A stretch of 20,000 nucleotides of DNA. Origin: Reclinomonas americana ATCC 50394 (lineage: Eukaryota). The position numbers were made by a program, and so were the translations under genes. Numbering within the stretch: the stretch's first letter is position 1; every line of letters begins with the position of its first letter. Positions 1-20,000 of the stretch are shown one piece after another. The stretch is taken from positions 119,568-139,567 of the forward strand of contig PS015296.1 of NCBI GenBank assembly GCA_048213135.1. The letters run 5' to 3'. Under the pieces are notes generated by a model. The model was not told the DNA's origin and did not search any database. It was given only the letters and a program-made list of their open reading frames with translations.

Positions 1-3000
1 CTTCTTTGCAATCACACGCAGCTCCTCCATCAGCTGCTCCAGTTCGTCCTTCGGGAACAGACCGGGAATTTCACCAGAGCACAAAATCATGTTGATGTAC
101 TCGAGGAAGCCTGTCGGGAAGCAATGGAATCAGTCGCACAGCAATAATGTGGAACTCAAGAAGCAGGAATCGCTTGCCCAACCTTCCTCCTTGATCTCAT
201 TGTCCGTAAAGATAAACACCATCGGCGAGCTGACGGCGGCGTTGCGGTACAGCGCCTTCAGGTCGTCCATAAAGTTGTTCATGCCATAGCCCTTGACCAG
301 TTGGACCTGTCATCATCACACCAGCAGGATTAGCACCAACAGCAAGCAACGACAACGAAGACGGAATAAAGACAACATTGTCGCACCTGGTACGGCTCAC
401 AGTTGGCAATAAATGCCGCCAAGCGAGTCAGCGACTGCTTGCCGGAACCACCGACACCGACCAGCAACGCGTTGCCGCCCGGCATGGTCACGATACGCGA
501 AATGCGCATCAAGTGATGCATGGCGAACTCGAAGAGCACCAGATGCATCTGCGAGCGACGGTACTTTTCGTTGTACAAGCCTGCACCACATCGGCATCGT
601 CAGCTACAACCGAGCAAACACACACACTCCTCAACAAACACACAAACCAATGTAGTAGTCGAGGCGATCGTTGAGGTGCTGGTACGACTTGATGGGCTCG
701 TAAAAGTACTCAATGGGCTCGTTCTCGTCGGCCGGTGGCGGGTACTCGTCGTCGTCGCGCAGGAAATTGACAAAGTAGCGTGGGTTCATGGCCACCTCGG
801 CCAGTGCGTCACCCATTTCGCTGGCCACCACCGTGCGCGTCGTGTCCGTGAACCACTGCACGTCTTCCGCCGAAATGAACTTGTCCGGCAGCACACGGTC
901 GCACTCGTGCTTCCACAGGCACAGCACCACGTCGGCGTCGTTGAGAGCCTTGGGCACGGCGCGGAGCAGGCCTTGGAAGATGCGACTCAAGTCACGCAAG
1001 TTGAAAATATAGTGGAACTTGGCCGGTGTCGGCAGCATCTTGACCTTGGTCTTCTCCCACAACAGGCGCGTCATGCGCGGGAAGTGGCTGGCGCGCTCCA
1101 CCACGGCCGCCGAGAAGCCGCGCTCCTTGCAGAAGTGACCGCAGCAGATCTTGCCGTAAATGGCCTCCACCGAGGTGGTCGAAGGCAGAGTGACGTTGAA
1201 GACGGCAAAGTGGCGCTTGAGACGCGACGGAATGTCGTTCTTGCCACCACCAGGCTGATTCATGGCCGCCACGTACTTGCAGTCCTGAATGACCAGGCGC
1301 TCGCCGGGCTTGTCCAAATTGTAAATCTCACCGTCCTCCACCAGCTGGCGGGTGAGCTCGTTTGTCACTTGGTCACCCCACTCGTTGATCTCGGGCATGT
1401 TGATGTCGTCGATAAAGATGATCATCGTGGTGCCGACTGGCGGACCGTACTTGTTCTGCAGGCGCTTCTCGACGGAAGACTCGAGCGTGCGTTGCAAAAT
1501 GTAGGGCGTGGTGGCACTGGAGAATGACATGGCCTTGTTCTTGACCTGCGTGCAAGAATGTCAGTAATGGGAAACGGAGAAGAGAAGAGAAGGGAGGGAG
1601 AAAAGGAAAGACAACCGAGGAAGAAGAGAGAGGAAGGCAGTGCAAGACAAAGAAAGAGGGAAAGAGGAGGGGGAGGAGAGAGGGAAAGAATGTGTGTGCG
1701 CGCGTGCGAGTATTTGACAAACCTTGTCCGGAGGCATCTTGAGAATGTACTGCTGGAGTGTTACAGTCTTGGCCGTACCGCTTTCTCCAATGAGAAGCAC
1801 CGGCAGCGACTGCTTGACAATGTTGTTGACGAGGAAGTCGCAGCGCACATTGTCGACAGTGGGCACCAAAATCGACGCAAACGGCGGCGTCTTGTCCTTC
1901 GGGTACTCCCACTGCGGCACACGCTCGCGCCAGTGCTGCCACTCGCCACTCTCCGGGTTCACCATGTACTCGTACACCTGCGTGAGTGGCACGTGAGAAA
2001 TCAAGATACGATGCAAGCGACAAGCGCAATAACCACACACACACACGAACCGATTCGCCGGTGGCGGCATCGGGGACGGTGAGGCCACCCGTATCGCGCA
2101 GCCAGTTGTGGACCTTGAGGCGGTCGGGCAACTCGAGCACGCCGCCCAGACTCCAAATGAAGGCAAACACAAAGTAGCGCTCAATGACGGTGGGGTTGAG
2201 GGCTTCGGGGCGCTGCTGCTTTGGTGGCAGCAAACCATTCAGCAGCTTCAGCGCCGTGCTGACCAGACACACGTCGTAAATCGACATCTTGCCATCGCAC
2301 TGTGCGCGATAGAACTCCAGGAAGCCGCCGACGTTCTTGAGGAAGAGACGCCGCAACACTTCCGCGTCCTCTTGCGGACGGTGCAGGTGATCCGAGTCGG
2401 GGTCGTTCTCGGCCACGACCTTCACCCACGCCTCCACCACCGGCTCCCAGCCGAGCGCGCTCGGTCCCATGTACACCATACCCATGCGCGACACCGTGGC
2501 CGGCGACGCGTTATCCAGGTTGCCCACCTCAAACAACAGCTTGAGCGTGGCAGGCATGCCTACACGCACGCACGCACAACGAAGGGGGGTGAGAGGGATG
2601 AGAGGGTTGCACTCACAGAAGAGGAAAGCAACAAACCGATGCGATCGCCATTGGCGAGGGTCAGTGTCTTGGTGTCGTCGAGCACCGTGTTGAGATTCTC
2701 AATCCACACGGCATCGACAGGGCCGTCGAGAATGATCCAGCTGTGGCCGACCTTGCTTTCGCAACCCTTGCGCCACAGCGACGAGAAGATACCGTCGGTC
2801 CAGTCGTTGGTGGCCGCATCGAGGCGACCAAACATCTGGGTGGCGGTGATGGCCTTCGGGTTCATGCGGCGCACCGAAATCGGCACCTCCGTCTCCGACA
2901 GTGCCTTGGCCAGCACATCGAACAGTGTGCTCTTGCCGGCACCACTGGGTCCCATGAGGCACAGGCCGTGGCGCACACGCCACTGCTCGAACATTTGCAC

Positions 3001-6000
3001 AATCTTCAGGTTCCAGCCCGGATGGTTGATGAGCTTGAGGTTCCCTGCGTACTTAGCAATGGCGGCCTGCAGCTCTCCATACTCTTGGCGCTCCACCTGC
3101 AATCGACAGCGAGGTTAAATGAGTACGAAAGAATGAGTGGTGGTGCTGGTGGCGGAGCGACGCAACGATAATGCCCGGGAACAGATCCTCAATGAGCGAG
3201 TAGAACAGCGGCTCGTCCTCCTCGACCAGCTTCGAGATGTTCATGTCACGCAGCACACGCATGAGAATCATGGTCTCGGAGTGCGTCGGGTTCTCACGCT
3301 TGGTGGCGCCGGCGGTACGGAGCACCGACAGAATGTTGCGCAAGCCGAAATCGTAGTGAGTCTGCTTCGACAGCTGCTCCTCGCACAGGCGGTAGAGGAT
3401 GAAGAACTTCTTGGAGAGGCGCGCATTGTCCTGGAAACCGGAGGCGGCCAGACGCACACGCATGATAATCTGACGATCGGGGACGACCACAGCAATCGTG
3501 CTGCAGGCAAAAAACGGAAGGGTCAGGAAAAATATCACGCACGAGAAGTGCCGGTGAGTCAATGAACAAGGTCCGTACCGGAAAAGCGCCTTCATGTTCT
3601 CCGGCAGCTCGGTACGACCGGCGTAACCGGGGTTCATGGTGATGAACAGACTGCTGCCCTTGTCCAGCGGGATGACAGAGCCGTCGGTGAAGCGGAACTT
3701 GTCAGCCTTTTCGCTGTGGTACGAAGCATGGATCTTGGTGAGGAGGGCGGAAGAAAGTGTGGGTGGTGGGCGGTAGCCGACAACTCACCGGTGGGCCTGG
3801 AAGAAGCACTGAATTTGCGCAGCGACGACACTGAGCACTTCCAGTTCGACACGGTTGACCTCGTCGAAACCGCACCAGCATCCACTTTGAGCAATGCCCT
3901 GTGCAGCAGATGAAGGGAGAGAGAGAGAGAGAGAGGAGGAGGAGGGAGAGCAGAGCGGAAAGCAAAGACAGAGGAGAGAGAGACTGAGTATCAAAACGAG
4001 AAAGTGTCGTCAAGTGACAAGCGTGATTACCTTGAAGAGCTTGCCCATGGCACGGAAATCCATTTGATCGGAGCAGTTGATGGTGATAAAGTACTTGCCC
4101 ACTGTACGACCCATATCCTGCAGAGCACACACGTGCAGCCGTTTAGCGAAAAAATACAAGCGGCCTTGGGTGGAGTGTGTCTCTCACCTTGGTTGTCTCG
4201 GTCTTGCCCGTTCCGGCGGGACCGGCTGGCGCACCACCAAAGTACATGCCCATGGCTTGAGCGCAGGAAATGTAGATACGATCTGCGTCGGACAAGTGCG
4301 TTAGCCACACCGCAACAAAAAAGGCACTAATTGGCTGCTCTCCACCCCACACGCGTACCAGTGAGCGGCGTAATCACAAGACGCTCCGTGCAACCGAGAT
4401 ACTCGAAGCAATACTCAAAGTCGACATCGGTGACAGAGATGCGGCACACATCCTCCTCGAACTTCCAGTAGAAGCGCGTCTGCTTCAGCCACTCAAAGTC
4501 GTTTGCCGCCTTGATGCGCTTCTTGACCATGTAGGCGAAGATATCCACCTGTGCAAAGGAGCACAGTCGTAAGCATCACTTACTACAAATAAAATATGGA
4601 ATCACAAGCAAGCAAGCAAACCTGATGAATGTGAATGGTGATGAGCGTCTCGACCTTGGTACGATCGGCACGCGACAAGTCGAGTGTCGTCATGTCGATG
4701 AGACCGGCGAGCAGGTCGTAGAACTTGCGGTTGGCCGTGTTCATGGCACCACGCTCCGCGCGAGCGCGCTCCAGCGCACTCTCCGCATCGAGCGTCCACA
4801 GCAGCTGCAGACCGAGCAGCGCCACCTGAGCCGGATACATGTTGACGAATTCCTGCAGCTTCTCCTTGCTGGCCGACTCGAGCATCTCGCCGACACGGGC
4901 GGCCATGTCGCGACTGACATCCTTCATGGCCGTCTGCATGGCCACAACGAAGCGGTTGAGCCAGTCCTCAATGTTGCCCTCGGCAATGCACGTCTCCTAC
5001 AACGCACCAACCGACAATCAGCAACAGAAAGAAGTGTGGATAAGGGAAAGGAGGCTTTGTGTCACGCAACGCTGAGTGGAATGTGCTCCTTCTCGGCCGA
5101 GAAGAGACCCTTGATGTGCGTGCGCTTGACCTTGTCGAACTCGGCCAAGTACACACTGGAGGTGATGGAGAGCAAGTGGCTCTGAATGGTGTGCGGATCG
5201 GAGCCCTGACCGAGAATCTCGAGCAGCTGCGCATCCGACACAAAGTAGAAGCGCGGGAAGACGCCACGCTTGGCCTCCAGGTAGCCGGCCAGCGACTTTT
5301 GGCAAAACTCCAACGACTCGAGCAGCGTCTCGAGAAGCTCCTTCAGCGCCGGGTCGCTGGTCTGCTTGACCATGTTGGGGTTGTCGAGCACACCGGCCAT
5401 GATCTTGCACCAGTTCTTGTCGATACCGGCAAAGCGCTTGGCCTCGGTGGGCAGCTGGCGGGCGATATCGCCACCAGAGAACACGGCCTCCAGGTAGATC
5501 CACAGCGACTGCGTGCGCAGCCACAATTCGATGACTTCCTGCGCCATGGATAGGCGCTGCACCCACTTCTGGATCTGCGCACGGAACGGCGCGTTGTACT
5601 TGTTGGAGAGCAGCGAACCGAGCGCCATCTGGGCGTCTTCGATGTTGGTCATCAACTCGCTGGTCGCCGACGGCATCAGCAACAGCGGGCCGCGGTTCTT
5701 GAACTCGTCCAGCTGCAGGTTGATGAGCGCCCACTCTTCCTCGATCTTGTTGATCTTCTCCTCGATATCGGCCTCACGCACGGCAGCGTTGCAGATTTCC
5801 TCCACATCGTCGGTGAAGCGATACAGCTTGGCCTCGACAATGTTGCGCACGCGGAAGTCGGTCATGGTGGGGCTCAGTTCGTAGCCCGACAGTTTCGACA
5901 CGGATTCCCAGTGACGTGCCTGAATGCGGTCGCTGGCCAGGCCAGTGAGCAGCGGCAGCGTCTCCAGGAAGTCGTTGATGGTCTGCTTGAGCTCCGTGTA

Positions 6001-9000
6001 GGCCTCCCAGTTGCTGAGGAGGGAAGAGGGTGAGAAGAGGGTGAGACAAAGGCAATGCAAACGGAGGGGAAGGGAGGGGAAGGGAAATATGGGAAGGGAA
6101 AGGAGGGGAAGGGAGGGGAAAATGGGACAGGGAGGTGAAGGGAATGGGAAGGGAGGGGAAAGAGCGGAAAGACATCAAAGGAGAGAGAAAGTTGAGAGTT
6201 CAACGAGGAGAGAGAGAATGAGAATGAGAAAAACAGAAAACACAAACGAACAGAACAGAAAATGAGAGCAGGTTGAGAGATTAACAAGTAAATGAAGCGA
6301 GATATAAAAAGGAGTGAAATAGCAAGAGAGCGAGAAAGGATCAAGGACACATACAGATAGAAAAGAGAAGACATAATGCGACCCGCTACGAAACTGAAGC
6401 TGGCGGGGCAGGCGACGGCAGAGCGTCTGGAACGTGTTGAGCTTGTCGGCCATGTCTTGCACCTTGACGTCAGTCCACAGTACCTCCTCGTAGCCGGTGA
6501 TGGTGACGAGCACGTTGGTGTAGAGGTTGTAGAGCTTGCCGAGCAGGTCGAGCTCCTGGTCCAAAAAGTCCAGCTCTGGGTACGTGGTCTGCGGCAGGTT
6601 GAACAGCTGCTCACCCATCTCGTAGATCTCGCGCTTGCGCTTGCGATCCTGGTACAGACGCTCAAAGTTCTTGAGCTTCTCCACAGCCACACGCGGCTTG
6701 ATGCCGGGCTGATTCGGACCCTTGTCATCGTACTCGGCCTTCAGGCGCGCGACATCTTCGACAAAGGTCTTGACGTCGCTCTCCAGCGCCTTCTTGTAGC
6801 GCGGAGCAATCTGTCGTCACCCCAGCACCGCATTGAGTCAAACCAAAAAAAGGAGGGACAAGAAGGTAAAAAGGGACGCAACATTCGACACGTGCGCCAT
6901 GGTGAGACGCGACTCGTGCACCAAGTCCTTCCACTTCTTGCGGATCTTCTCCACCTCCTCCAGCTCTTCCTGCGGCACGTCGACCTTGTACTTGAGCAGA
7001 ATCTGGTAGGCCTCCTCAATCGGGATCATCTTCATCTCCATGATGCTCTCCTTCTCGCGCAGCACGCCAAGGACGCTCATGAGGGCGTTGATGTCGGCCA
7101 GATCCTCCAGCTGGTCGCGCTTCATCAGCTTGCTCATCGTCTCGTCCATGTAGGTGAGGTACTTGTCGAGCTTGCCCTTGCCCTTCTGGTTGAGGGCGCT
7201 GCCGTACTCGGTCTTCCAGGCGGCGGCCTCACGCATAAGGGCCAACTTCAGCGGCTTGATGTCGAGGCAGAGAGTGCCGATGATGTGGGCCGGCGGCAGC
7301 GCCGACACTCGCTCAAATAGCAAGTGGTACTTCTTGACGGCCATCTCAAAGTCGTTGAGGCCGGGCTTGGAGCCCAGGAACTCAGCCATGGTCTCCTTGC
7401 GGTTGACACGCCACAGCTCCTGATATTGGTTCAGGTCTTCCAGATACTTGAGCACCTGCGCAAGGGGGAGGGAGGAGAAGCGAGAGAGGGACAATGTCAT
7501 GAGTCGTTCATCTCGGACGTTCAGGAAGGGATTCTTCGCCGAGGTAGATGGACCATGACTGTTGATTTGGCACTCGCCGTCAACCATCCCGACCGCCACC
7601 GAAGAATTCAAGACGGGCAGGAGTAGACGCATACGGGCGGTGCCAAGGAGGGAGAGGGTGAAGGGAAAGGGAGGGAAAGGGAAAGGGAGGGGAAGGGAAG
7701 GGAAAGGGCAAGGGAGGGGAAGGGAGGGGAATGGGAGGGACTGAGGAAGAGTGAGGAAAGCAGAGCGAAAGAGGGTGTGACAGAGGGATGCGAAGAATGA
7801 CAAGTTGGATGGACAAAAATGAGAGGTCAAGGGGGAAAGAGTGCAACAGAAGGGAGAGAGAAAAAGTCAGAGAAAGAGGGGACGAAGAAGAGAGACAGCG
7901 GAGGGAGGGAAACAGGGACAGACACATGCAAAAACTGAGAGATGTGAAGGAAACAGGGAGTGAACAGAGAAAGAGAGGAAATGACAAGAGAGAAGAGATC
8001 TCTGTGTCCTCCACCCGCGCCCCCCACCCTCCCAACACTCAACTGTCTTGGAAAGCACGGCAGCGGAGCCAGTCAGCTGCAGGAACGTCTTGATGATCTG
8101 ACGGTTGCGGCCGAGCTCAAAGTACGCGTTGCGCAGGCCCTCCAGCGCCTCCGGCGTCTGCTGCTGCGGTCGCTTCTGGCCCCAATACAAAATGTACTTG
8201 GTGGCCTCCAGCATGATACGCGCAGTCTTGTTGATGCATCGCTGCACCTCCTCCAGGGACGGGTCGATCACAATGTCGGGCACTTGCAGGTGCACCTCGG
8301 CCTTGAAGACGGGCATCGACAGCGACAGGAAGCCGAACGACTTGTACGAGATGCGCGACTTGAGGCTCTGCGCACTGCGGCGCAGCGAGTCGATGCAGGA
8401 ATCGACGGCGACCTTTTGGTAGTGCGACACAATTGCCGCGCAGTCCAGGCGCACCTCCTGCACCTCCTCTGCCGCGTACTGGTGGGTCAGCAGCGCCACC
8501 AGATCGTTGGCCGCCGACTCCATTTCGGCGCTCTTCAAGTCGATCGTCTTGGCGGCCTTGATCGATGTCTCCGACTGCAGCTCGATGAAGTCGCTGATGG
8601 AGAGCGTCTCCGGGTGGTTCAACTCGACAAACAGCGTGTTGCCGATGCACCGCGCATTGGCCTCCAGGCGGTTCGCCACAATGTCGTTGGACTGTGAGGA
8701 GACAAGGGTAAGCTAAGGTGCGAAGGAAATGAGCAGAAGGAAATCGTTCTGCAGACCTTGCTGACGAGCTCCTCCAGGCGGCTGATGGCGCGGACGCATT
8801 GCGTCGTGTAACCGTCAATGTTCAGCGAGGACCATGTGAGGGAGATGAGGCCCTGTGGGGGAGGAGTGTGAGAAGGAGAAGCGAGAGGGAAAAAGGAGAA
8901 GGGAGGAGGAGAGGGAGAGAGGAGAGGAAGGGGAAGGGGAAGGGGAAGGNNNNNNNNNNNNNNNNNNNNNNNNNNNNNNNNNNNNNNNNNNNNNNNNNNN

Positions 9001-12000
9001 NNNNNNNNNNNNNNNNNNNNNNNNNNNNNNNNNNNNNNNNNNNNNNNNNNNNNNNNNNNNNNNNNNNNNNNNNNNNNNNNNNNNNNNNNNNNNNNNNNNN
9101 NNNNNNNNNNNNNNNAGAGAGAGAGAGAGAGAGAGAGAACAGGGCGGACTTGCAGCCAGCTCAAACGCAACTGGGGCAATCACTTCGTCCACACGAGCAA
9201 TCATGTTGCGAAGCAGACTGGCGTACACAGGCTGGACCATGCTGACCACGCGATCGTACTCGCTGATCATGTAGTTGAGGCTCGACGAGTATTTCTGCAA
9301 GCAAGTCAGACTCTTCCTCCTGCTCTTCCCTCCCAATCCATCCCACCCACAACGCACCTTGATCTTGCTCTTCTGCAGGTACACGGTGTGCGCCGACTCG
9401 GGGATCTCCAGACCCATGTCGTCGAGCAGCTTGATCTCGCGAATCAGTTGCAGGATTTGCAAGTCAAAGTTGACCAGGTACTTGTTGGTGGAGGGGTCGC
9501 GGACCATCAGCGTGGCCAGGAGGCCATCCCGCGCAGCCGCCACCGCCTCGCACCAGCCGTTGTACCACACCTCCTCGAACTGCACGAGGGCGCGGGCCAC
9601 GGTGTTGTAGGCCTTGACAATGCGGCGGCTCTCGACGAGCTTCACAATGTAGGTGTTCTGGAAGTGGAGCATCGGGCCCTCCAGCTTGCGCAGCATCTGG
9701 CGCGCCCACGCAATGCTGCCGGCCACCGGCGGGTAGTTGCGCGGGAAAGGCGGGTGTGTCTTGAGGCGCTCGTACGACTTTTTGAAGTCCTCAATCACCT
9801 GTCCGTACTTGTGCCACAGGTGCAGGTGCTTCTCCTCCAGCGTGCGCTGCACAGCAGAGTGAGGGAGAGAGGGAGCGGGAGAACAAGAGCAGCAGGGCAC
9901 AACTCACATTCAGCGTCTCGCGATCAAAGGCCGCCTTGAATTGCTTCCACAGGTGCAGCGACGGCTCAATCTTCATGTTGTCGGTAAAGGCATGTGAAAT
10001 AAAGGCGATGCAGTCATTCTCCAGCTCGAGAATCGACAGGTTGAAGGTGGCGTAGTCGGTCTCGAATTCCTGCTTGCGCGGGTCGAGGAAGTCGTACTTT
10101 TTCTTGCGGAATTCGCTCACGATGCGGCGGTACTGATGAGGAGAAGGGTGAGACATGGTAGAAGGGAAGGGGAGGGGGAGGGGAAAGGGGAAAGGGAGGG
10201 GAGAAGGGGGAGGGCAAAGGGGGGAGGGGAGGGGAAAGGAGAAGAGGAGGTAAGACGAGAAAGGAGAAGGGAGAAGGAGAAAGGGAAAAGAGATGAGATG
10301 GGGAGGAAAACACAGAAGGGAGAATGGAAGTAAGGAACAAACAAACAAACAAAGAGAGAGAGAATGAAAGGAAGAAAAAGAGAAAGAAAGAAGACGAGAC
10401 AAGTGTCGATGAAACAAGGGACTTTGCCGCTCACCTGATCAACCAGCGGCTGCATGCCCTCGATCACACTCTCCTCAATGCCAGCGAATTGCTTGAGGGT
10501 GGTGAACAGGTCGATCAGCTTCTGGAGACGGCGGCAAAACACGTCAAACTTGCCAAAGATGGCGGCCTCGGAGCAGTCAAACTGCTTGCCCGACGGGTTC
10601 TGCTGCAGCTCGTACTTGGTCTGCCGGTACTGCGACTGGTACTGATCGTACAGGTCGATGCAGTGGTGGCACTTCTCAATCAGCTTCACCGGATCCTGCT
10701 CCCAGATCGACGTCTCATGACCGCGAGCGCCGCCCAGGCCGCTGGCCGTGGTGCGCATCGGCTCGTAGACGGTGAGGATGTAGCCCTTGCAGCAGGCAAT
10801 CATCTGGTTGGTGATCTTGACAAACAGTGCCGTCAGGCGCTCCGAGGTGTTGTAGTAGCGCGAGATCGAGTGGATCATGCGGATGGCGTTGAGGAGGCCA
10901 GGGAGACCGGCGGACACTAAAATGGGGGAAGGGTGAAAAGGGGATGTAAGGGCGAGGGATGAGAGAAGCGAAGAAGAAGAGAAAAGTAAGAGTACGCGCA
11001 CACAGAGAGACAGGATGGAAGAGAGCACAAACAGCAAAGAGACAACGCACACAACAGGGGGCACTCAGATGTTCGGAGCGTTGCGCATCCAACACGTAGT
11101 GATCCAGGGCACACACATGCACACTGATTCTTTCCACATACTCCACACTACGCCCTCCACCTTCCCGCACGCACCTTGCGCTGGATCGTTGCGGTACAGG
11201 GGCTCGCTGAACTTCTCCAGTGTGTCGAGGTACTTGACATTGTCCTTGGCCTCGTTGGCTGCGTCAGTCAGCTGCTTGTCGAGCTCCATCCACTTTTTGA
11301 GGTAGCGCGACTTGGCATTCATCAGCAGCGACAGCACCATCTGCACGGAAGCACAGTGAGCATGCATGTGCCCACATCACCCACACCAACTATCTGTCCT
11401 CTCTCTCTCTGCATACCTTGACGGGCCGGCTCTTGAGCTGCTCGACCACGCCGTTGAACTTGGCCATGCGCGCCTTCCAGTATTCCAGCTCGGCGCGTGG
11501 GCCCGCATTGTCGGGCTCCGAACGCACGGCGGTGCCCTCGGCAAACGCCACCTGCAACTGCTTCTTCCACTCCTGCAGAATGGCCTCGTAGCGCTCGACC
11601 GTCGTCGGGTTCTTGGCGGCCTGGGCCAGTGCCGTCGGCGTGTCGTCCAGCATCTCGTCCGGTCGCAGCTTGCGCAACTGCACGCCAGCGGCCACGGCCT
11701 GGGAGGCCTCGCCGAGGGTGGACACGAAGCGCTCCAGCGACTCCATGAACGAGAGGATCTCGCCAATCTGCGCCGGGCCGTCCTCCTGCGTCAGCTCGCC
11801 CCAGTTGCTCTGGTTGCGCAGTGCCGGCACCATAACCTGTGCGGCGATCAAGAGTGATGAGCGAACACACACACACACACACGAGAGGGGTGACGAGTAG
11901 GAGGGCTGGCAAACCTCGGTGAGGCGCTTGCGCAGCTCATTGAGCACGTCCTTCTCCACGACGCCAAACAGCAGCTCGGCGTCCATGTTTTGTGCCGACA

Positions 12001-13380
12001 GCGCACGGGTGCCGGCGCGCAAAAAGTACACACCCACCGCCGTGCCACGCAGCGGCAGTGCCTGATCGCCAGTGGCCACACCGAAACGGTGACCCTGTCG
12101 CGACACACCAATGTACCGCTCGCCGAGCACGACGGGTGGTGGTGCAGAGCCGCTGGCGCCATTGGCGCGCGGTGAGTCACCACTCGAGTCCGAGTCGTCG
12201 CTGTTCTCCGCAAAGTCGCCCATGGAGCCTGGAGGGGAGGGGAGAGGAGAGGAGAGGGAGAGGAGAGGGAAAGGGTGAGCAAGTTGATACGGAGGCGAAG
12301 AAACGGGTCATGGACAGGAGTCGACCACACAACAACCACATACATTCTCACTCCCGCAACAAGCCTCCAGTCTAACGCACTCCTCTGCTCTTTGGCGACT
12401 CTAGCAGCAGCACCAAGAAGTCTCCATTCATACTCACTTCTCTCTGCCCAACACTCGCATCTCAACGCCCTCCATGCTTGAGACGCAGCCACACTTCCCC
12501 ATCTTCTTCTCTGCCCATACTCTCCCCACGCACTCCACTCTCTCCTTCTCGCACCACGCACCAGCGGCCGCTAATACGCTCAACGCCCACTCTATACTCT
12601 CCGTCTCCAACGCCGCCACATCACAATCACAGCACCTTCAGCCCAGTCCACCCTCCAACGACCCACGAGCTGCCGCCTCTGCCACCACCAACTACACACC
12701 GTTCTCCACCACTCACAGCCTTTGCCGCAGCCACAAACTCACTGCTCTCTGTTCTCTCACCGACCAGCCGCCATCACAATTCCACCTCAAACTCACTTCC
12801 CGCACTCACAACACCCACTCTACTCCGTCTCCTACCGCCTCAGCTGCCACCAACTCACGACTCCATCCCTCCTCCCATTCTACCCCCCTTCTCCCAACAC
12901 CCACCAGCCACCGCCACATCATAAAGCCCACCGCAAACTCACTCACAACACCCATTCTCCTCCCCATCTACCCCCCTTCTCCTCCCCTTATCATGCCACT
13001 CACCCGCCGCCCGCAAAACATCTCAACACCCACTCTCCTACCGCCTCTGCTGCCACCAACTCACTACTCCCATTCTCCTCCCCGTCTACCCCCCTTCTCC
13101 TCCCCTTATCATGCCACTCACCCGCCGCCGCCTTTGCCGCCGCCGCCGCCGCCGACGCCGACGCCGTCGACGCAGAGCCGCCACTGCCTTCATCTCCCTC
13201 CGCCGACGCCTCGCCATAATAGACCACAAATAGCCTCCTCAGCGCCGTGTCGGCGACAAAGTGCTTGATGGCGTCGGCCGCCGCATCGTGTCGCGTAAAG
13301 AAATCATCAACGGCGGCGCGCGGGCACCGAAAGAACTCGGTGATTTTCGACAGGAACCATGTCACTCGAGGGTCCGCCAT
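1..13380 (-). CDS. DNAH5: Axonemal outer-arm dynein heavy chain, gamma type (DNAH5/DNAH8; Chlamydomonas ODA2-like); 3' part runs out of the window
   Basis: Hand-spliced exons, all GT-AG and in frame: 13380-13122, 12228-11915, 11836-11417, 11340-11175, 10916-10435, 10132-9908, 9846-9358, 9294-9172, 8852-8757, 8691-8044, 7455-6883, 6810-6395, 6013-5071, 4996-4622, 4548-4359, 4282-4188, 4117-4031, 3898-3789, 3713-3579, 3500-3167, 3096-2637, 2559-2051, 1977-1723, 1545-648, 580-387, 306-183, 110-<1 (9,030 nt). Tail motifs [27 protein letters not shown] and [10 protein letters not shown]-loops AAA1 [11 protein letters not shown]2 [11 protein letters not shown]3 GESGTAKT (GTAKT is typical of gamma-type chains) and AAA4 [13 protein letters not shown]5 and DNAH8 cannot be distinguished for a protist gene. 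Confidence 0.96.
7492..7646 (-). ncRNA. Candidate intronic box H/ACA sno/scaRNA in dynein intron 10 (7456-8043)
   Basis: A ~155-nt complex island inside a low-complexity pyrimidine intron, on the host sense strand. Hairpin 1 is closed by GGCAC-CGCC...GGCG-A-GTGCC, followed by H-box AAATCA (7568-7563). Hairpin 2 is closed by CATG...CATG with inner CTCGG/CCGAG, then ACA (7497-7495) and a 3-nt tail. Confidence 0.62.
8950..9115. other. Assembly gap (166 N) within dynein intron 8
   Basis: N run flanked by GGGGAA and (GA)n repeats. The flanking exons join in frame ([16 protein letters not shown]), matching family spacing, so probably no coding sequence is missing. Confidence 0.97.
12580..13130. 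repeat. Degenerate tandem repeats in dynein intron 1, including a duplicated exon 1/intron 1 junction
   Basis: CATTCTCCTCCCC(A/G)TCTACCCCCCTTCTCCTCCCCTTATCATGCCACTCACCCGCCGCC occurs at ~12953-13011 and ~13071-13129. CAACACCCACTCT...CCTACCGCCTC(A/T)GCTGCCACCAACTCAC occurs at ~12809 and ~13024, with a weaker copy at ~12581. Confidence 0.85.
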
Positions 13381-13828
13381 GATACTAAGAGAGAGACACA
13401 CACACGCAAACACACACACGCGCGTGAAAGTGAGACAGAGAGCGGGTGATCGTTGGCGCGCAAAACACACACAAAAAAAGTCTCATTTTCGCACTGTCTG
13501 TTACACACACGCACACGCACACGCACGCACACGAGGAGACGCACACACACACGCGCGTGTGCGTGCGAGATGACACAACACAAACACACGCGCGCGCGCC
13601 ATGTTGCAAGAAACGCACGTACCACTGTGTAAACCCTGCGCAAATGTGCCGCGCTCACTCTGCTTCTTGCACACACACACACGCGCGCGTGCTTGTTGTG
13701 TGTCTGTGTGTGTGAGAGTGTGCGTGTGCTCTGAGGCAGCGAGTTGGTTGTTGTTTTCGTTGTGGCGTTGTAGGTTGCGTGGCTCGCACTGTCCCGCACT
13801 GTCCCGCGTTTTGATCTCTCACACAAAC
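13381..13828. promoter_or_regulatory. Putative bidirectional promoter and 5' UTRs between the dynein and eIF3g start codons
   Basis: Only 448 bp separate the divergent ATGs (13380 -, 13829 +). The region is rich in alternating purine-pyrimidine CA/TG/CG tracts such as ACACACGCGCGTG. Confidence 0.6.
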
Positions 13829-16518
13829 ATGGCGGCGTCGGCATCACGCGCATGGTAATGTGCTCTCTGAGTGGGCGAGAGTGCAGAGGAGTGCAGAGAG
13901 AGAGGGGAAAAAGTGTGTGAGTTGTGCGTGAGTTTGACATGTGACATGTCTCAGTTTAGACACTCTCTCTTCTTCTCTGTCTGTGTGTGCGTGTGTGTGT
14001 GTGTCTCTCTTGTGCTCTTCAAGTGTCTGTCTCACTCGCATATGCACTTGCTCTTGCATTTGCATGCGAATGAGTGAGTCTGATGAGAGAGAAGAGAGAG
14101 AGAAGAGAGAGAGAGGGAGAGTGTTTGAGTGTGAGTGTGAGTGTGAGTGTGTGTGTGTGAGAGAGCGTGTGTGCCTGTGTCTATCTTCTCACTCACTTGT
14201 GCACTCTCTTTCATTTGTACTTTCTCTTGAGAGTGTGATTGCAAGAGTGTGTGTGTGAGAGAGAGAAAGAGAGCAGAAGGGAGTGAGGCCCACACAAGGG
14301 GAGAGACAGGCAGATGCACACACATGCAATCTCTTCACTTCTCTCTCTCACTCACTTTTGCTCTCTTCTTGAAGGGCGGACTCTGATCTTGGAGAGGATG
14401 ACTTTGGTGTGGAGCGATTTGCGACTGGGCCGGATGAGAACGGCATCAAGACGATTACGGAAGTGCGGTACACGAAGACGGGCGAGAGAGTCAAGGTTGG
14501 TGGCTGGGGGACAAGGAGGGAGGAGAGGGAGACTGAGTCGAGATTCTTGCGCTTGAATGCTCACAAGCAGCGTATGCACTGAGGAATCATAGTTGTCTTG
14601 ATTGAGCAGTGATTGTTTGCGCGTTGTGTGCGTGTGCAAATGCCTGTGAGCTGTAACGTTGACTCTGATGTGTGTCGTCGTGCATGCACTGAGGAATCGT
14701 AGTCGTGTCTAGATTGTGTGTTGCTCGTCAAGCACCCACGATCAGAGAGGCTGTGTGTCAATCTTGATTGGAATCACCATTGTTCTGCTTGGGCGTCTTG
14801 CATTGCCGTCGAGTGCAGCAGAGTCACTCTGAGCTCGTATGCTGAGACAAGTCTTTTCCTTCACGCCATGCTGAACAGCGCTGAGCTCGCACGACGAGCA
14901 ACTCTTGTCGCTGTTCTTGGCTCGTTTTTTGTGTGTTCTTTCGTAGTCGTCCTTGGTTTGCACAGAATATCTCGGCGTGATGCGTCGCAGTAATACCTCC
15001 TTGCACGTCTCGCATGTTTTCGCTCCGCATTGCAATCTTGTCTCCCCTTCCCCTCCCTTGCCCCTTATCCCCCCCTTCCCCCTCCCTTCCCCCAGCACGT
15101 TCAAACCTTCCGCGTGTCCTCCCGCGTGAAGCGCGTGAAGAAGAGCGTGGTGGAGCGACGAGACATGCGCAAGTTTGGCCTGCAAGACAACTCGGTGGAG
15201 GGACCCGAGGAGCGCATCACCGAGGTGACCGATCCGATTCCGTTCGCGCTCACCACCCGCAAGAAGCTGGAGGCCAAGAAGGAGGAGCCGGATCTCATCA
15301 AGAGAATCAAGGACTTTGCCGCACAGTCAGGTTTCCAGCAGAGGTCGTGGCGCGACAAGGCCAATGCGGTGGCGGCGGAGGAGGCTGCGGCGGCGGCGGT
15401 GGAGGGCAGCGGGCGCTACGTGCCACCCAGCATGCGTGGTCTGGCGTCGGGAGAGGCACCAAAAGGTTTATTATTTTCTGCGCTTTTCATGTTCAGATGT
15501 CTTGTTCTCACTCCCCGTCAAACCGCAGACATTGCCAAGATCCGCATCACCAACTTGCCCGACATTGAGGAGGACGAGCTGCGCCACCTGTTCGGCTCTG
15601 TCGGCAGCATCAGTCGCGCGTTCATTGCCCGCGATCGCGACACTGGCGAGCCACGTGGCTACGCCTTTGTCACCTACTACTCACGAGACGAGGCACAAAA
15701 GGCGATTGACAAGTTTGATCGGTATCCGCTGTACAATCTCATTCTGCACGTCGAGTGGACAACAAAGTTGCGGAGGGGGAAAGGGTGGTACCTGACGGGT
15801 CTCTCTGCTTGTCATCCTCTGTGCGTCGCTCTCTATCGCTCATCGCCCGTCTGCCTCTCACTCTCTCTCTCTCTCTCTCACTCTCTCTCTCTCTCCACCT
15901 GCTTGTTGCTATCCCTCGCCTTCTGTTCGCCGCTTGCGTTCGTTCGTCTCCTGCGCATCGCTCTCCGTGCATGTTTTCTGTCGGTCGCTCGTTCCTTGTC
16001 CGTCGCTCGTCGCCAATTGTTTTCCGTGTCTCACTCTTTCTCATTCGGCTCCTATGTGTCATCTGCCGCTCTCTCCCGCAAATCTAATCCACCTCTTCGT
16101 TCCTCTCCATCCTTCTCTTACTCTCTCTCTCTCTCTCTCTCCTCCTGCGTGTCGCTGTCGCTCGCCTTCTGTTCGTCGCTCGCTTCGCTGGTCGCCAGCG
16201 CGTCGCTCTTTACTCATCTCCGGTGCGTTTCTCTCGGTGCTCGTTCCCTGTCGGTCGTCTTGTTCGTCGCCTGCTGTTGCTCGTCTCCCGTCAGGCTTCC
16301 CTCGCGTCACGTGCATGTCATCTGCGCGCTCTCCGTCTATCTTTTCCACCTCTTCATTCCTCTCCATCCTTCTCTCTATTTCGCTCTACACTTGCCTGTC
16401 GCTATCACTCGTCCAGTCTCCCTTGACCCTTCCGCCTATCCTCTCCCTTCATTTGTCACTCCCCTTTTCCCTCCCATTCCCGATTCTCATCCTCTTCTCT
16501 GTTCCCGCGCGCAGCTAA
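13829..16518 (+). CDS. EIF3G: Eukaryotic translation initiation factor 3 subunit G (N-terminal eIF3g domain plus C-terminal RRM), ~252 aa
   Basis: Exons 13829-13854, 14375-14495, 15096-15465, 15529-15766, 16515-16518. Protein MAASASRAWAD...NGIKTITEVR...VVERRDMRKFG...GP...GRYVPPSMR...IRITNL...TGEPRGYAFVTY...LILHVEWTTN*. WAD, GIKT, KFG, YVPPSMR and ILxVEW are eIF3g hallmarks, and RNP2/RNP1 are present. The last donor (15767) is inferred. Confidence 0.93.
13860..14370. repeat. Mixed GA/GT/CT simple-repeat tracts filling eIF3g intron 1 (13855-14374)
   Basis: (GA)n, (GT)n, (GTGAGT)n and (CT)n runs are visible throughout. Confidence 0.8.
15860..16390. repeat. Degenerate ~250-bp tandem duplication in the last eIF3g intron
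   Basis: Paired blocks (CT)n...CTCGCCTTCTGTTCG at ~15914 and ~16161, and TCCACCTCTTC(G/A)TTCCTCTCCATCCTTCTCT at ~16088 and ~16345. Confidence 0.8.
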
Positions 16519-16677
16519 AGGTGAACGGAGTGGCATTAAAAAAGGAAAGCAGGAGAGCCTACGACGTGTGCGTGCATGCGTGGAATACCGTGAATACACA
16601 ACCACGAGTGGGCTTGTTTGTTTTTCAAGGCCTATACATTTGGGGGTTGTTTTTTCACAAATGGCTGAAAGAGCGCA

Positions 16678-19600
16678 TCATGAGCGCTCCCACATTTGGC
16701 GGCGGCGCCACGGATGAGCCAGTTGCGGTGAGAATTTGCGCTCCAGAGGGACCTCGGAGGCCGCCCGAGACAATCGCTCGCCACACTCCGACGCCGTAAA
16801 CTTGCGATCGCCAGCACGCTGCTGCCGATTGACGGCCTCGGCCACCTTGGTCATGTTAAAGAGGTTGGTGCGGGCGGCCGAACGCAGCGTGGCCACCAGG
16901 TCGTCGGTCCACTCGGGTTCGCGAAGTGGCTCGAACAGCAACTCGTGGACCCTGAAAAAAATGCGGCAAATGAGCGCGAGATACGGGAGAGAAAAACAAG
17001 ATATGATTCCAACCTGACAGGCGAGCGCGACACCGGCAGCTTGGTGAGCACCGAGGCGGTCTCGTCGTCCTCGTTGTCGGCAAGGACGACTGGCGGCGCA
17101 CTGCCACGACCCTTCAGCACCGCATCGTCGACCACCGTGTCCGAAAGTCGCTCCGCTTCCACACTCTCCACGTCCTCGCCCTCTGGGAGCACCAGGCTGT
17201 GCTTGTCGTCTGCGTCGTCGTCGACCACCGCAACGACAGTGGGCACGGGCGCAGCCTGTGACTCCTCGACACGGCTTTTGCCTCTCGTGTCCGCCTTCTC
17301 CTTGCTGTCGTCGTCCTCGGCGCTGCCTTCCGAACCCCGATCCTCCTCCTCCTCCTCCTCCTCTTCTTCATCATCAATGGCCTCGATGGGAACACGCCGT
17401 GTGGCCAGCGCCGTGGGCTGAGCGACGGCAGTCGAGCCACTGGCAGCGCCTGCGATTGCCGTTCCGCGGTTTCCCCATCTGCGTGGCACAACTGTCAGTT
17501 GTCGCTCTATCACGTTCTCCTTCGCCGCTATCAAAAACACACCGTTCACGCCACTGCTTGGTGACACTGTCCTCGCCTTCGTCGCGGTCCATGTAGCGCA
17601 CGTAGCGCGGATGCAGCCTCTGCGGAAGCAACAGTAAACAACAGATTTCTGTGCGCGAGACTTCAAGCACAGGCACGCAACATTGTACAAATCACGTGTC
17701 TGCTCGCTGGGACCGTCGCGACCAGCCTCGGCGTCCTGGCGCATCGACTCCTCGTACTCGGTCTCCAGTGTTGCGCGTCGTTCGCGAGCCTCCTCCTGTG
17801 GCAACGGTGAGCACTCACAATAGTCTCTTCACATCGAAAACTAACACACAGACCTGCATGCGTCGCCAGGCCTTCAATTGGTCGCGCTCTCGTGCACGCT
17901 TCTCGTCGTACTGACGCTGCCGCTCCTCACGCTCTCCCTCCACGCCACCGACCTCCCATGCCTGCGCGTAAAAATCTTGTCGGCACCTGCTCTTCCGTTT
18001 GCGCGCCCACCTCTGTCTCTTTTCGCCGCTCACCTGCACCGCCAAGCGCTCCGAGTCGAACACGGGTCGATCGTCGAGGTATGTGAGGCCCTTGCAGGCG
18101 AGAATCATCTTCTTGCGGTAATGCTGGGTGGCGCGGATGACCGGATTGCCGGCCAGCTGAATCACGCGCAGACTCGGCATGCGTGCAAACACCTCGTCAA
18201 TGACACGCGGATCGCCAATGTGGCAGTGGCCGACGTCGAGCACGCTGATCGCCTGGCACTCCACCAGCTCCGCCACCGACTCCACCGTGTCGAACCGATT
18301 GTGGCTAATGTACAACGAGGTCAGCTCGGACAAATGCCGCAGGTTCTCGATGCGCGTCAGCAGATTGTGCGACAGGTTGAGCGTCGACAGGTGAATGGTG
18401 GCCTCCAGGTTCTCGATGCGTTCAATCAGGTTCTCGTGCAGGAACAGGCAGCGCAGCTCCGTCATGTGCTCGAGCCCCTCGATGCGGCCGATACCGTTGC
18501 CTTCGAGCCACAGGCTGCGCACCTCGACATACTCTGGGCGGTGGGGAAGGGGTGAGTAAAGGAGAGGGCCGGGGGGTGGGGGTGTGGGTACATGTACCTT
18601 CCAGGTTCTCGATCTTTTTGAAGCCGCGGTGATGCAGGTACAACTGATGAGGAGAGAGGATCGGAGGTCAGTAGAGGGAGAAAGCGATGTTACAAGAGAC
18701 ATGAAAGGCGGACGAGAGAGAGAGAGACGGCAAGGGAGGACAGAGAGCAAAATGCAGACCTTTGCAGAGAAAGAGAGAAAGAGCACGAGAGAAAGATATC
18801 CTCGCGTCGTCTCCCTCTCATTCTGTGTGTCAAGATCTCGTCATTGCTCGCACTGTGCCTTCTCTCATCCCCACAACGAGATAAGATGGGAAACGGCAAG
18901 AGATGAGTGAGAGGAAGACTTGGCAGAAAGATAGTTTGAGAGAGATGGAAAGATGTGCTGTTCTAGCTCCCTCTCGTTCTCTCGGTCAAGATCACATCGC
19001 TCTCGTCATCGGTCGCACTGGTCCCTCACAAGGAGTAAGAGTGAGATCGTGCAAGAGAAAAGATGGGAAACGAGAGAGAAAGTGGAGACGACAAGAGACG
19101 AGTGAGGGGAAGACAGCGATGCCGATCTTGACAAAAGAATGGAATAAGAACAAGGGCGAGACGCGCATATCGCGCTCTGTGTGTCAAGATCAACATCGGT
19201 CTCGTCATCGCCCGCACTGTGCCTTCTTTCATTCCTCACAAGGAGTGAGAGGGCGATCGCGCAAGAGTGAAGATGGGAAAACCGAAGGAACGTGATGGCA
19301 GAAAAATGGGGCGAGAGAGAGAGAGAGAGAAAGAAGTGATTGTCTCGCTCCCTCCCGCCCGCTCTGTGTGTCGAGATCAACATCGCTCGCACTCTCAGTT
19401 GCGTCCCCGTCCTTTCCCCTCCTCCTCGGTGTATCATCTCTCGTCTTACTTGTCGCAGTCGCGATCAACATCGCTCCCTCTCACACCCTCATGTGTCTTC
19501 TCTCGTCTCTGTCGAGATCAACATCGCTCGTGTCTTCCCTGGTCACTTGTCTCAGTCGCGATCAACATCACTCCCTCTCACACCCTCATGTGTCTTCTCT

Positions 19601-19796
19601 TGTCTCTGTTGAGATCATCATCGCTTGCACTGTCACTCTGCCATCTCCAGCGAATCACTATCTCTTTGCTTCTTCTCTCTCTCTACACTTGTCCATCATT
19701 CCCCTGTCCCTCCCCCGCACTCACCTTATCATTCAACCGCGGCGTATCATACAACTCCTGCTCCCGACAGATGCGCCGCACACGCGCCTTGCTCAT
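16678..19796 (-). CDS. DNAAF1: Dynein axonemal assembly factor 1 (LRRC50/ODA7-like LRR protein), ~551 aa, with acidic linker and SANT/Myb-like C-terminus
   Basis: Exons 19796-19725, 18643-18598, 18533-18034, 17961-17854, 17795-17682, 17619-17543 (or 17555), 17478-17014, 16951-16678. N-terminal signature [32 protein letters not shown], SDS22-like LRRs (LWLEGNGIGRIEGL, LFLHENLIERIENL), LRRcap GNPV...YRKKMI...LTYLDDRPVF, then AW..GG.EGEREER coiled coil. The true start may lie slightly upstream. Confidence 0.9.
18820..19640. repeat. Composite degenerate tandem repeat in DNAAF1 intron 1 with recurring core GATCAACATCGCTC
   Basis: Three long units start at ~18826, ~18985 and ~19181 (CAAGATC...CTCGTCAT...CGCACTG...CACAA...AGATGGGAAA). 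Shorter ~97-bp units follow, containing CTCCCTCTCACACCCTCATGTGTCTTCTCT (~19474, ~19571). The core occurs about 7-8 times. Confidence 0.85.
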
Positions 19797-19896
19797 CACA
19801 CCAGCAGGTCCCTTTATACAAAAAAAAGAGAGCGAGAAAAATAACGATCAACACCTGGATCTTCGTTTGCGCGCGATTTCCTCTCACTCATCTCTC

Positions 19897-20000
<104 letters not shown>

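Follow-up and report, generated by a model that had tools for sequence, protein, structure and literature searches.

As a rule, the recognition of intron donors is described in terms of a single register that tolerates mismatches, and non-canonical registers are, to our knowledge, known solely as rare exceptions in humans. A stretch of 20,000 nucleotides from Reclinomonas americana ATCC 50394 (contig PS015296.1, positions 119,568–139,567; hereafter, the window) raises the question of whether an organism can mark the starts of its introns in two registers. The window is rich in GC and carries three eukaryotic genes, which encode a dynein heavy chain, eIF3g, and DNAAF1. A reading of its letters, made without database searches (the sequence-only reading), had proposed that 8 of 37 introns in these genes start with a shifted donor, mostly GTTGCGT or GTTGAGT, in place of the ordinary one. 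The same 37 introns and the same eight donors were obtained here with an aligner that assumes no donor consensus. The shifted donors are a discrete second class and not the tail of the ordinary consensus. A donor slid by one base at about one-fifth of the introns suggests that this organism marks intron starts in two registers.

Reconstruction of the introns

The introns were rebuilt with our own protein-to-genome dynamic-programming aligner, in which an intron is allowed at any GT or GC with a later AG. A flat intron penalty was applied and no splice-site matrix was used, so that no donor consensus was assumed. The dynein junctions were placed by spliced alignment with 11 dynein references, and each of the six shifted junctions was checked by local alignment over ±25 residues, with gaps scored over ±8 residues. 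Of the 37 introns, 26 are located in the dynein gene, 7 in DNAAF1, and 4 in eIF3g. The 27 dynein exons join into a 9030-nt reading frame with no stop. Most introns are 58–80 nt long, a GC-AG intron was never required, and the acceptors are CAG (33 introns), TAG (3 introns), and AAG (1 intron). Overall, splice signals are tightly constrained across the 37 introns.

The six shifted junctions of the dynein gene had been described as fixed by frame and gap-free homology, and all six were recovered at the same positions (Table 1). The junction peptides that had been quoted for them, SKT/VLKYL, HIPLS/ETCIAEG, and FPGII/VERQEY (slashes mark junctions and exon–intron boundaries throughout), are all present in the reconstruction. 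For donor 8043, acceptor 7456 was chosen by three references and acceptor 7534 by one. The intron that starts at 9171 contains a run of N (assembly gap) at 8950–9115, and its length of 319 nt is therefore nominal only.

In DNAAF1, the first four introns were chosen by 12/12, 12/12, 11/12, and 6/12 references, respectively. The later introns were placed by frame and coding potential; the C-terminal half of this protein is not conserved. Removal of the intron 17681–17620 moves the frame to one of clearly better codon usage, and the intron that follows (17542–17479, 64 nt) reverses this shift. Position 17681 is the sole GT compatible with the frame when the acceptor is 17620. In eIF3g, one codon and the stop remain downstream of acceptor 16514. 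Solved eIF3g chains end ~5 residues beyond the aligned part and do not discriminate between the candidate donors. With the last eIF3g intron retained, no stop is met for 350 codons beyond HVEW (15767–16799), a stretch of pyrimidine-rich repeats, and automatic annotation could easily add a long false tail there. Of the two junctions that had been proposed outside the dynein gene, the one in DNAAF1 (17681) is thus upheld by frame and codon usage, whereas the one in eIF3g (15767) is not, because other donors give equally short tails. Seven of the eight shifted junctions are independently supported by frame together with homology or codon usage, and the eIF3g site is a candidate member of the class.

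Table 1. Introns with shifted donors and genes of the window (window positions; reference counts are those that chose the junction, followed by gap-free local alignments).
Feature	Coordinates	Strand	Donor	Remarks
Dynein intron	8853..9171	-	CCA/GTTGCGT	Acceptor CACAG/GG; 5/7 references spanning; gap-free 5/5
Dynein intron	7456..8043	-	ACA/GTTGAGT	Acceptor GCGCAG/GT; donor 4/7 references; gap-free 4/4
Dynein intron	6811..6882	-	AAT/GTTGCGT	72 nt; 6/8 references; gap-free 5/5
Dynein intron	6014..6394	-	TCA/GTTTCGT	Phase 2; 9/9 references; gap-free 14/14
Dynein intron	4997..5070	-	AGC/GTTGCGT	74 nt; 10/11 references; gap-free 14/14
Dynein intron	3097..3166	-	ATC/GTTGCGT	70 nt; 7/8 references; gap-free 9/9
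DNAAF1 intron	17620..17681	-	AAT/GTTGCGT	62 nt; frame and codon usage; homology uninformative here
Putative last eIF3g intron	15767..16514	+	AA/GTTGCGG	Shifted-type donor; candidate junction
Axonemal (outer-arm type) dynein heavy chain gene	1..13380	-		ATG at 13380; continues past window base 1; 26 introns
eIF3g gene	13829..16518	+		4 modelled introns; RRM exon aligns with eIF3g chains of human and yeast
DNAAF1 (dynein axonemal assembly factor 1) gene	16678..19797	-		7 introns; DNAAF1-named relatives, ≤55% identity

A discrete second class of donors

All eight shifted donors had been noted to lack G at positions −1 and +5 and to carry G at +6, with −1G in 28 of the other 29 donors and +5G in most of them. 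Our counts agree. G was found at −1 in 0/8 members of the class versus 28/29 other donors, at +5 in 0/8 versus 25/29, and at +6 in 8/8 versus 3/29. T at +7 occurs in 7/8 members, the exception being the eIF3g candidate, versus 8/29 other donors. All eight introns start with GT and end with CAG or TAG. When the 37 introns were left unlabelled, −1G and +5G were positively associated (24, 4, 1, and 8 introns; Fisher p = 1e-4), also after removal of the eIF3g site (p = 2.8e-4), and −1G and +6G were negatively associated (p = 3.5e-5). Eighteen donors begin with GTT; in these, +5G accompanies −1G in 9/10, whereas those without −1G have +5G in 0/8 and +6G in 8/8 (p = 4e-4). The sign of the association between −1G and +5G is opposite to that predicted by a single register, in which one G compensates for the loss of the other. 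Such compensation between the −1 and +5 guanines is reported for human donors in PMC8283771, where 6 of 1,990 sampled human introns (0.3%) are without both guanines. In the window, 8/37 introns are without both.

The shifted sites had also been said to look like the ordinary consensus slid by one base, and the heptamers bear this out. Ordinary heptamers, counted from −1, match those of the class when their second base is changed from G to T (GGTGCGT and GTTGCGT, GGTGAGT and GTTGAGT, GGTTCGT and GTTTCGT), and all these ordinary partners occur in the same window. The matching heptamers point to a common core of both classes: G, any base, T, G/T, C/A, G, T. The GT at the cut occupies positions 2–3 of this core in ordinary donors (G/GTGCGT) and positions 1–2 in shifted donors (/GTTGCGT). 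The exon ends with CA at the dynein members 9171, 8043, and 6394, and with AA at the eIF3g candidate, which is what the ordinary (C/A)AG becomes after a one-base slide. At phase-0 members, the −1 base is A or T in 4/6, compared to an A+T content of 17% at third codon positions of the dynein gene (p = 0.008), and it is G in 0/6, compared to 41% expected from third codon positions (p = 0.04).

Counting both strands, the window has eight copies of the word GTTGMGT (M, A or C), no more than shuffled sequences do. However, the sense-strand copies in the minus-strand genes all (6/6) sit exactly at inferred exon–intron boundaries. Of the remaining two copies, one precedes the eIF3g start and the other lies within a DNAAF1 intron, in antisense orientation. 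The former (GTTGCGT at 13774–13780, plus strand) is preceded by AG, and there is no AG between it and the eIF3g ATG; this copy is probably not a donor.

Control loci were taken from 80 metagenome dynein loci, each ≤55% identical; an earlier one-exon scan of metagenome contigs for close relatives had found none. With the same aligner and the window dynein as query, 14 other eukaryotic dynein loci gave 0/103 shifted donors (55 + 48 introns), although some of these 103 introns, in intron-poor loci, are probably alignment artefacts. The difference from the 6/26 shifted donors of the window dynein is significant (p = 4e-5). The absence of shifted donors from the control introns argues that the method does not manufacture the shifted class. 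In one of the metagenome loci, from a GC-rich eukaryote (L073), the dynein donors G/GTACG and G/GTGCGT resemble the ordinary class, and 0/11 introns have a shifted donor. The dynein intron positions were also compared with those of six loci (L040, L075, L035, L073, L013, and L001). Of the 26 positions, one coincides exactly, and it belongs to an ordinary donor (4187). None of the shifted-donor positions is shared with the six loci or offset from them by one base, so this comparison holds no evidence on intron sliding. From these alignments, the dynein intron positions look largely lineage-specific.

Two other origins of the class were considered and rejected. The sequence-only reading had stated that the sites are not of the U12 type, and no RTATCCTT-like site was found at any of the 37 donors, with one mismatch allowed; the nine one-mismatch near-matches in the window compare to ~10 expected by chance. 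One-mismatch matches to a U12 branch-site-like motif (TCCTTRAC) numbered 36 versus ~26 expected, counted irrespective of intron positions. For an introner-like or transposon-derived family, all-against-all blastn of the 37 introns returned pyrimidine-rich low-complexity matches only. These matches are shared by long introns of both classes, and the four short members of the shifted class have none. Purine-rich GGAAGGG-type arrays on the plus strand (6063–6160, 7661–7749, and 10162–10239) are sense-orientation C/T-rich tracts in long dynein introns. Such C/T-rich tracts recur in long introns with either type of donor, and in those of eIF3g.

Proposed register of U1 pairing and rival explanations

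The reading that we prefer is that the eight sites are U2-type GT-AG donors of a second class, in which the conserved core lies one base further into the intron and the register of U1 is shifted. We give it about an even chance of being correct. In ordinary donors, the first G of the core is the last exon base, with the GT at the cut following next; in shifted donors, it is the first intron base, followed by T. The same U1 5′ end would bind the core identically in both classes. At shifted donors, U1 C9 would thus pair with +1G instead of −1G, and U1 C4 and A3 would pair with +6G and +7U. The later steps (U6, U5, and Prp8) would set the cut at the sole available GU, and one intron base would be looped out so that U6 reaches +6G and +7U. 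The authors of PMC4856993 point out that the register of U1 does not have to be kept at the U6 step. The mechanism is plausible, and our analysis partly supports the interpretation. Pairing was counted with the standard U1 5′ end (human U1, PMC4856993). Class members form 4–8 Watson–Crick pairs in the shifted register versus 2–4 in the canonical register. By this count, the shifted register is better for 8/8 members, whereas the canonical register is better for 28/29 other donors.

Several points weigh against this reading. The duplex energies predicted by RNAduplex, in any register, are +0.5 to −1.8 kcal/mol for 7/8 class members; member 8043 has −7.9 kcal/mol, and the 29 other donors have −4.1 to −12.8 kcal/mol. 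Given these near-zero energies, pairing to standard U1 may not be what defines the class. At −1, three members carry T and two carry C, both of them bases that do not pair with U10. For this organism, a standard U1 5′ end is assumed, and all steps that involve small nuclear RNAs are inferred. The sample is one 20-kb window with six of the eight members in one gene, and all junctions were placed from DNA by frame, homology, and coding potential. In eIF3g, at least three other donors (15785, 15788, and 15821) give C-termini as short as that from 15767.

A bulged duplex could produce a similar pattern. U1 would pair with +1G and +2U normally, the U at +2 or +3 would be looped out, and pairing would resume on G(C/A)GU. 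GTTGCGT without one U is GTGCGT, the commonest ordinary hexamer in the window; in humans, this register is known, and PMC4856993 gives 68 predicted sites for it; and the later U6 step would have to loop out one base in any case. However, a −1G would then pair with U1 C9 and stay favoured, as it is in 28/29 other donors, whereas it was found in 0/8 members and falls below the codon-usage expectation at phase-0 sites. Since a bulge would keep the −1G pairing, the lost preference for −1G fits a shift better, and we consider the bulge decidedly unlikely. The sequence-only reading had offered a variant U1 or U6 or a dedicated factor as an alternative. The near-zero affinity predicted for the standard U1 5′ end in 7/8 members would instead be expected if a dedicated component read the class in the normal register, be it a variant U1 that matches GUUGCGU (e.g., through a change facing +2) or a protein factor. 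In 10.1101/2022.06.08.495308, the U1 5′ end is shown to have co-evolved in Entamoeba (AACAAAC) and in Mastigamoeba (ACGUAC), and PMC3561869 reports that variant U1 genes are expressed in humans. On the other hand, the lineages with a +4C preference described in 10.1101/2022.06.08.495308 (an apusomonad and the Mamiellales green algae) have retained a U1 5′ end of standard sequence, and for a one-base slide of an identical core, one reader is simpler than two. The window itself offers no pointer here: no Rfam family matched at gathering score (0 matches). A dedicated component is, in our view, unlikely.

The class could also be real but local, that is, peculiar to the dynein gene or a sampling fluctuation, and rare genome-wide as in humans. 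The concentration of members in one gene and the sample of only 37 introns are compatible with this. Against it stand the supported member in a second gene (DNAAF1), the candidate in a third (eIF3g), and the dynein frequency of 6/26, which is far above that of the 14 control loci; we therefore rate a local class as very improbable. A gene-model artefact, with the true junctions elsewhere or with non-canonical boundaries (e.g., both ends moved by one base), would be easiest to argue from the DNA-based placement of the junctions and from some individual sites. For donor 5070, pairwise enumeration gave a GC-AG alternative three bases on (5067/4994) within 2–7 units, and one reference preferred it. 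At donor 6882, the other two of eight references chose 6891. A G follows 4/6 of the dynein acceptors, so that moving both ends by one base would leave the mRNA unchanged. However, the alternatives are themselves poor donors (GTT/GCGTGA for 5070 and CAC/GTGTCG for 6891), and a one-base slide would give TT..GG introns. Moreover, seven junctions that were placed independently of each other show the same heptamer, and every sense GTTGMGT copy is a donor. An artefact thus appears extremely improbable.

In a further-reaching reading, the cut would have no fixed place relative to the snRNA-binding core of the donor in this lineage, and the two phasings, G/GU and /GUU, might both be routine, with the shifted one at about one-fifth of introns. 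We put this forward tentatively, at clearly less than even chances. This organism would then be the first with shifted-register (or variant-U1-dependent) donors as a major intron class, and it would offer a natural system for the uncoupling of U1 binding from the choice of the cleaved bond. If one-fifth of its introns used the slid register genome-wide, the register would be an evolvable property of a lineage, and there would be hundreds or thousands of natural cases from which to learn how the cut is placed after the departure of U1. Gene prediction that has learned the majority logo (−1G, +5G) would miss or misplace ~20% of the donors. The joint presence or joint absence of −1G and +5G would be a simple genome-wide diagnostic, which is applicable to other protists as well.

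Genomic setting and comparison with known systems

The closest relatives of the window dynein heavy chain are DNAH5/DNAH8-like, with 53% identity. The dynein and eIF3g genes are arranged head to head, with start codons ~450 bp apart (13380–13829). The stretch between them is CA/GT-rich and is probably a shared promoter region of both genes. The eIF3g and DNAAF1 genes are arranged tail to tail, with stop codons at 16516–16518 (in the eIF3g model of the sequence-only reading) and 16680–16678. As these stop codons are ~160 bp apart, the 3′ untranslated regions of the two genes may overlap. The first DNAAF1 intron contains a 97-nt tandem repeat (19448–19625; 1.8 copies, 93% matches), and an (AC)51 microsatellite is found at the window end (19898–20000).

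In the literature on shifted U1 registers and non-canonical pairing, supplements not covered, no lineage rich in such donors was found to be reported. The search returned human work and one tunicate paper that names the register as a mere possibility. Searched as words in full-text literature, the class heptamers appeared in primer lists only.

The shifted-register sites of humans, which number a few dozen, are the closest counterpart of the class described here. They are rare atypical donors that are read by a U1 shifted by one base (Roca and Krainer 2009, as described in PMC4856993). As in the window, they are GT-AG sites with no −1G and no +5G but with +6G and +7U. They form more pairs with the U1 5′ end when it is moved by one position, as is predicted for the class with a standard U1 5′ end, and the cut stays at the GU, where the DNA-based junctions place it here. 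The same architecture is present in the ‘Shifted +1’ test oligonucleotide in Table 2 of PMC4856993. The two systems differ in frequency. All validated non-canonical registers together account for 1.5% of 201,541 human sites according to PMC4856993, whereas here 7–8 of 37 introns carry a near-invariant heptamer. They also differ in the basis of the register, which is suppressor U1 there and a prediction from sequence here. The human ‘bulge +2/+3’ register (Roca et al. 2012, as described in PMC4856993) is similar in its extra U after the GU and in its good core at +3 to +6, but it keeps the −1G pairing, whereas −1G is absent from 8/8 members here.

Like U12-type (minor) introns, the shifted introns form a second discrete class with a donor motif of its own beside the major class. 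In contrast to U12-type introns, their acceptors are ordinary CAG or TAG, and the U12 donor motif is absent from their donors. Entamoeba and Mastigamoeba, as presented in 10.1101/2022.06.08.495308, likewise have a lineage-specific donor consensus, including the GUGCG type with +4C. Those lineages have one transformed consensus and one changed U1, whereas the window of R. americana presents two phasings of one consensus.

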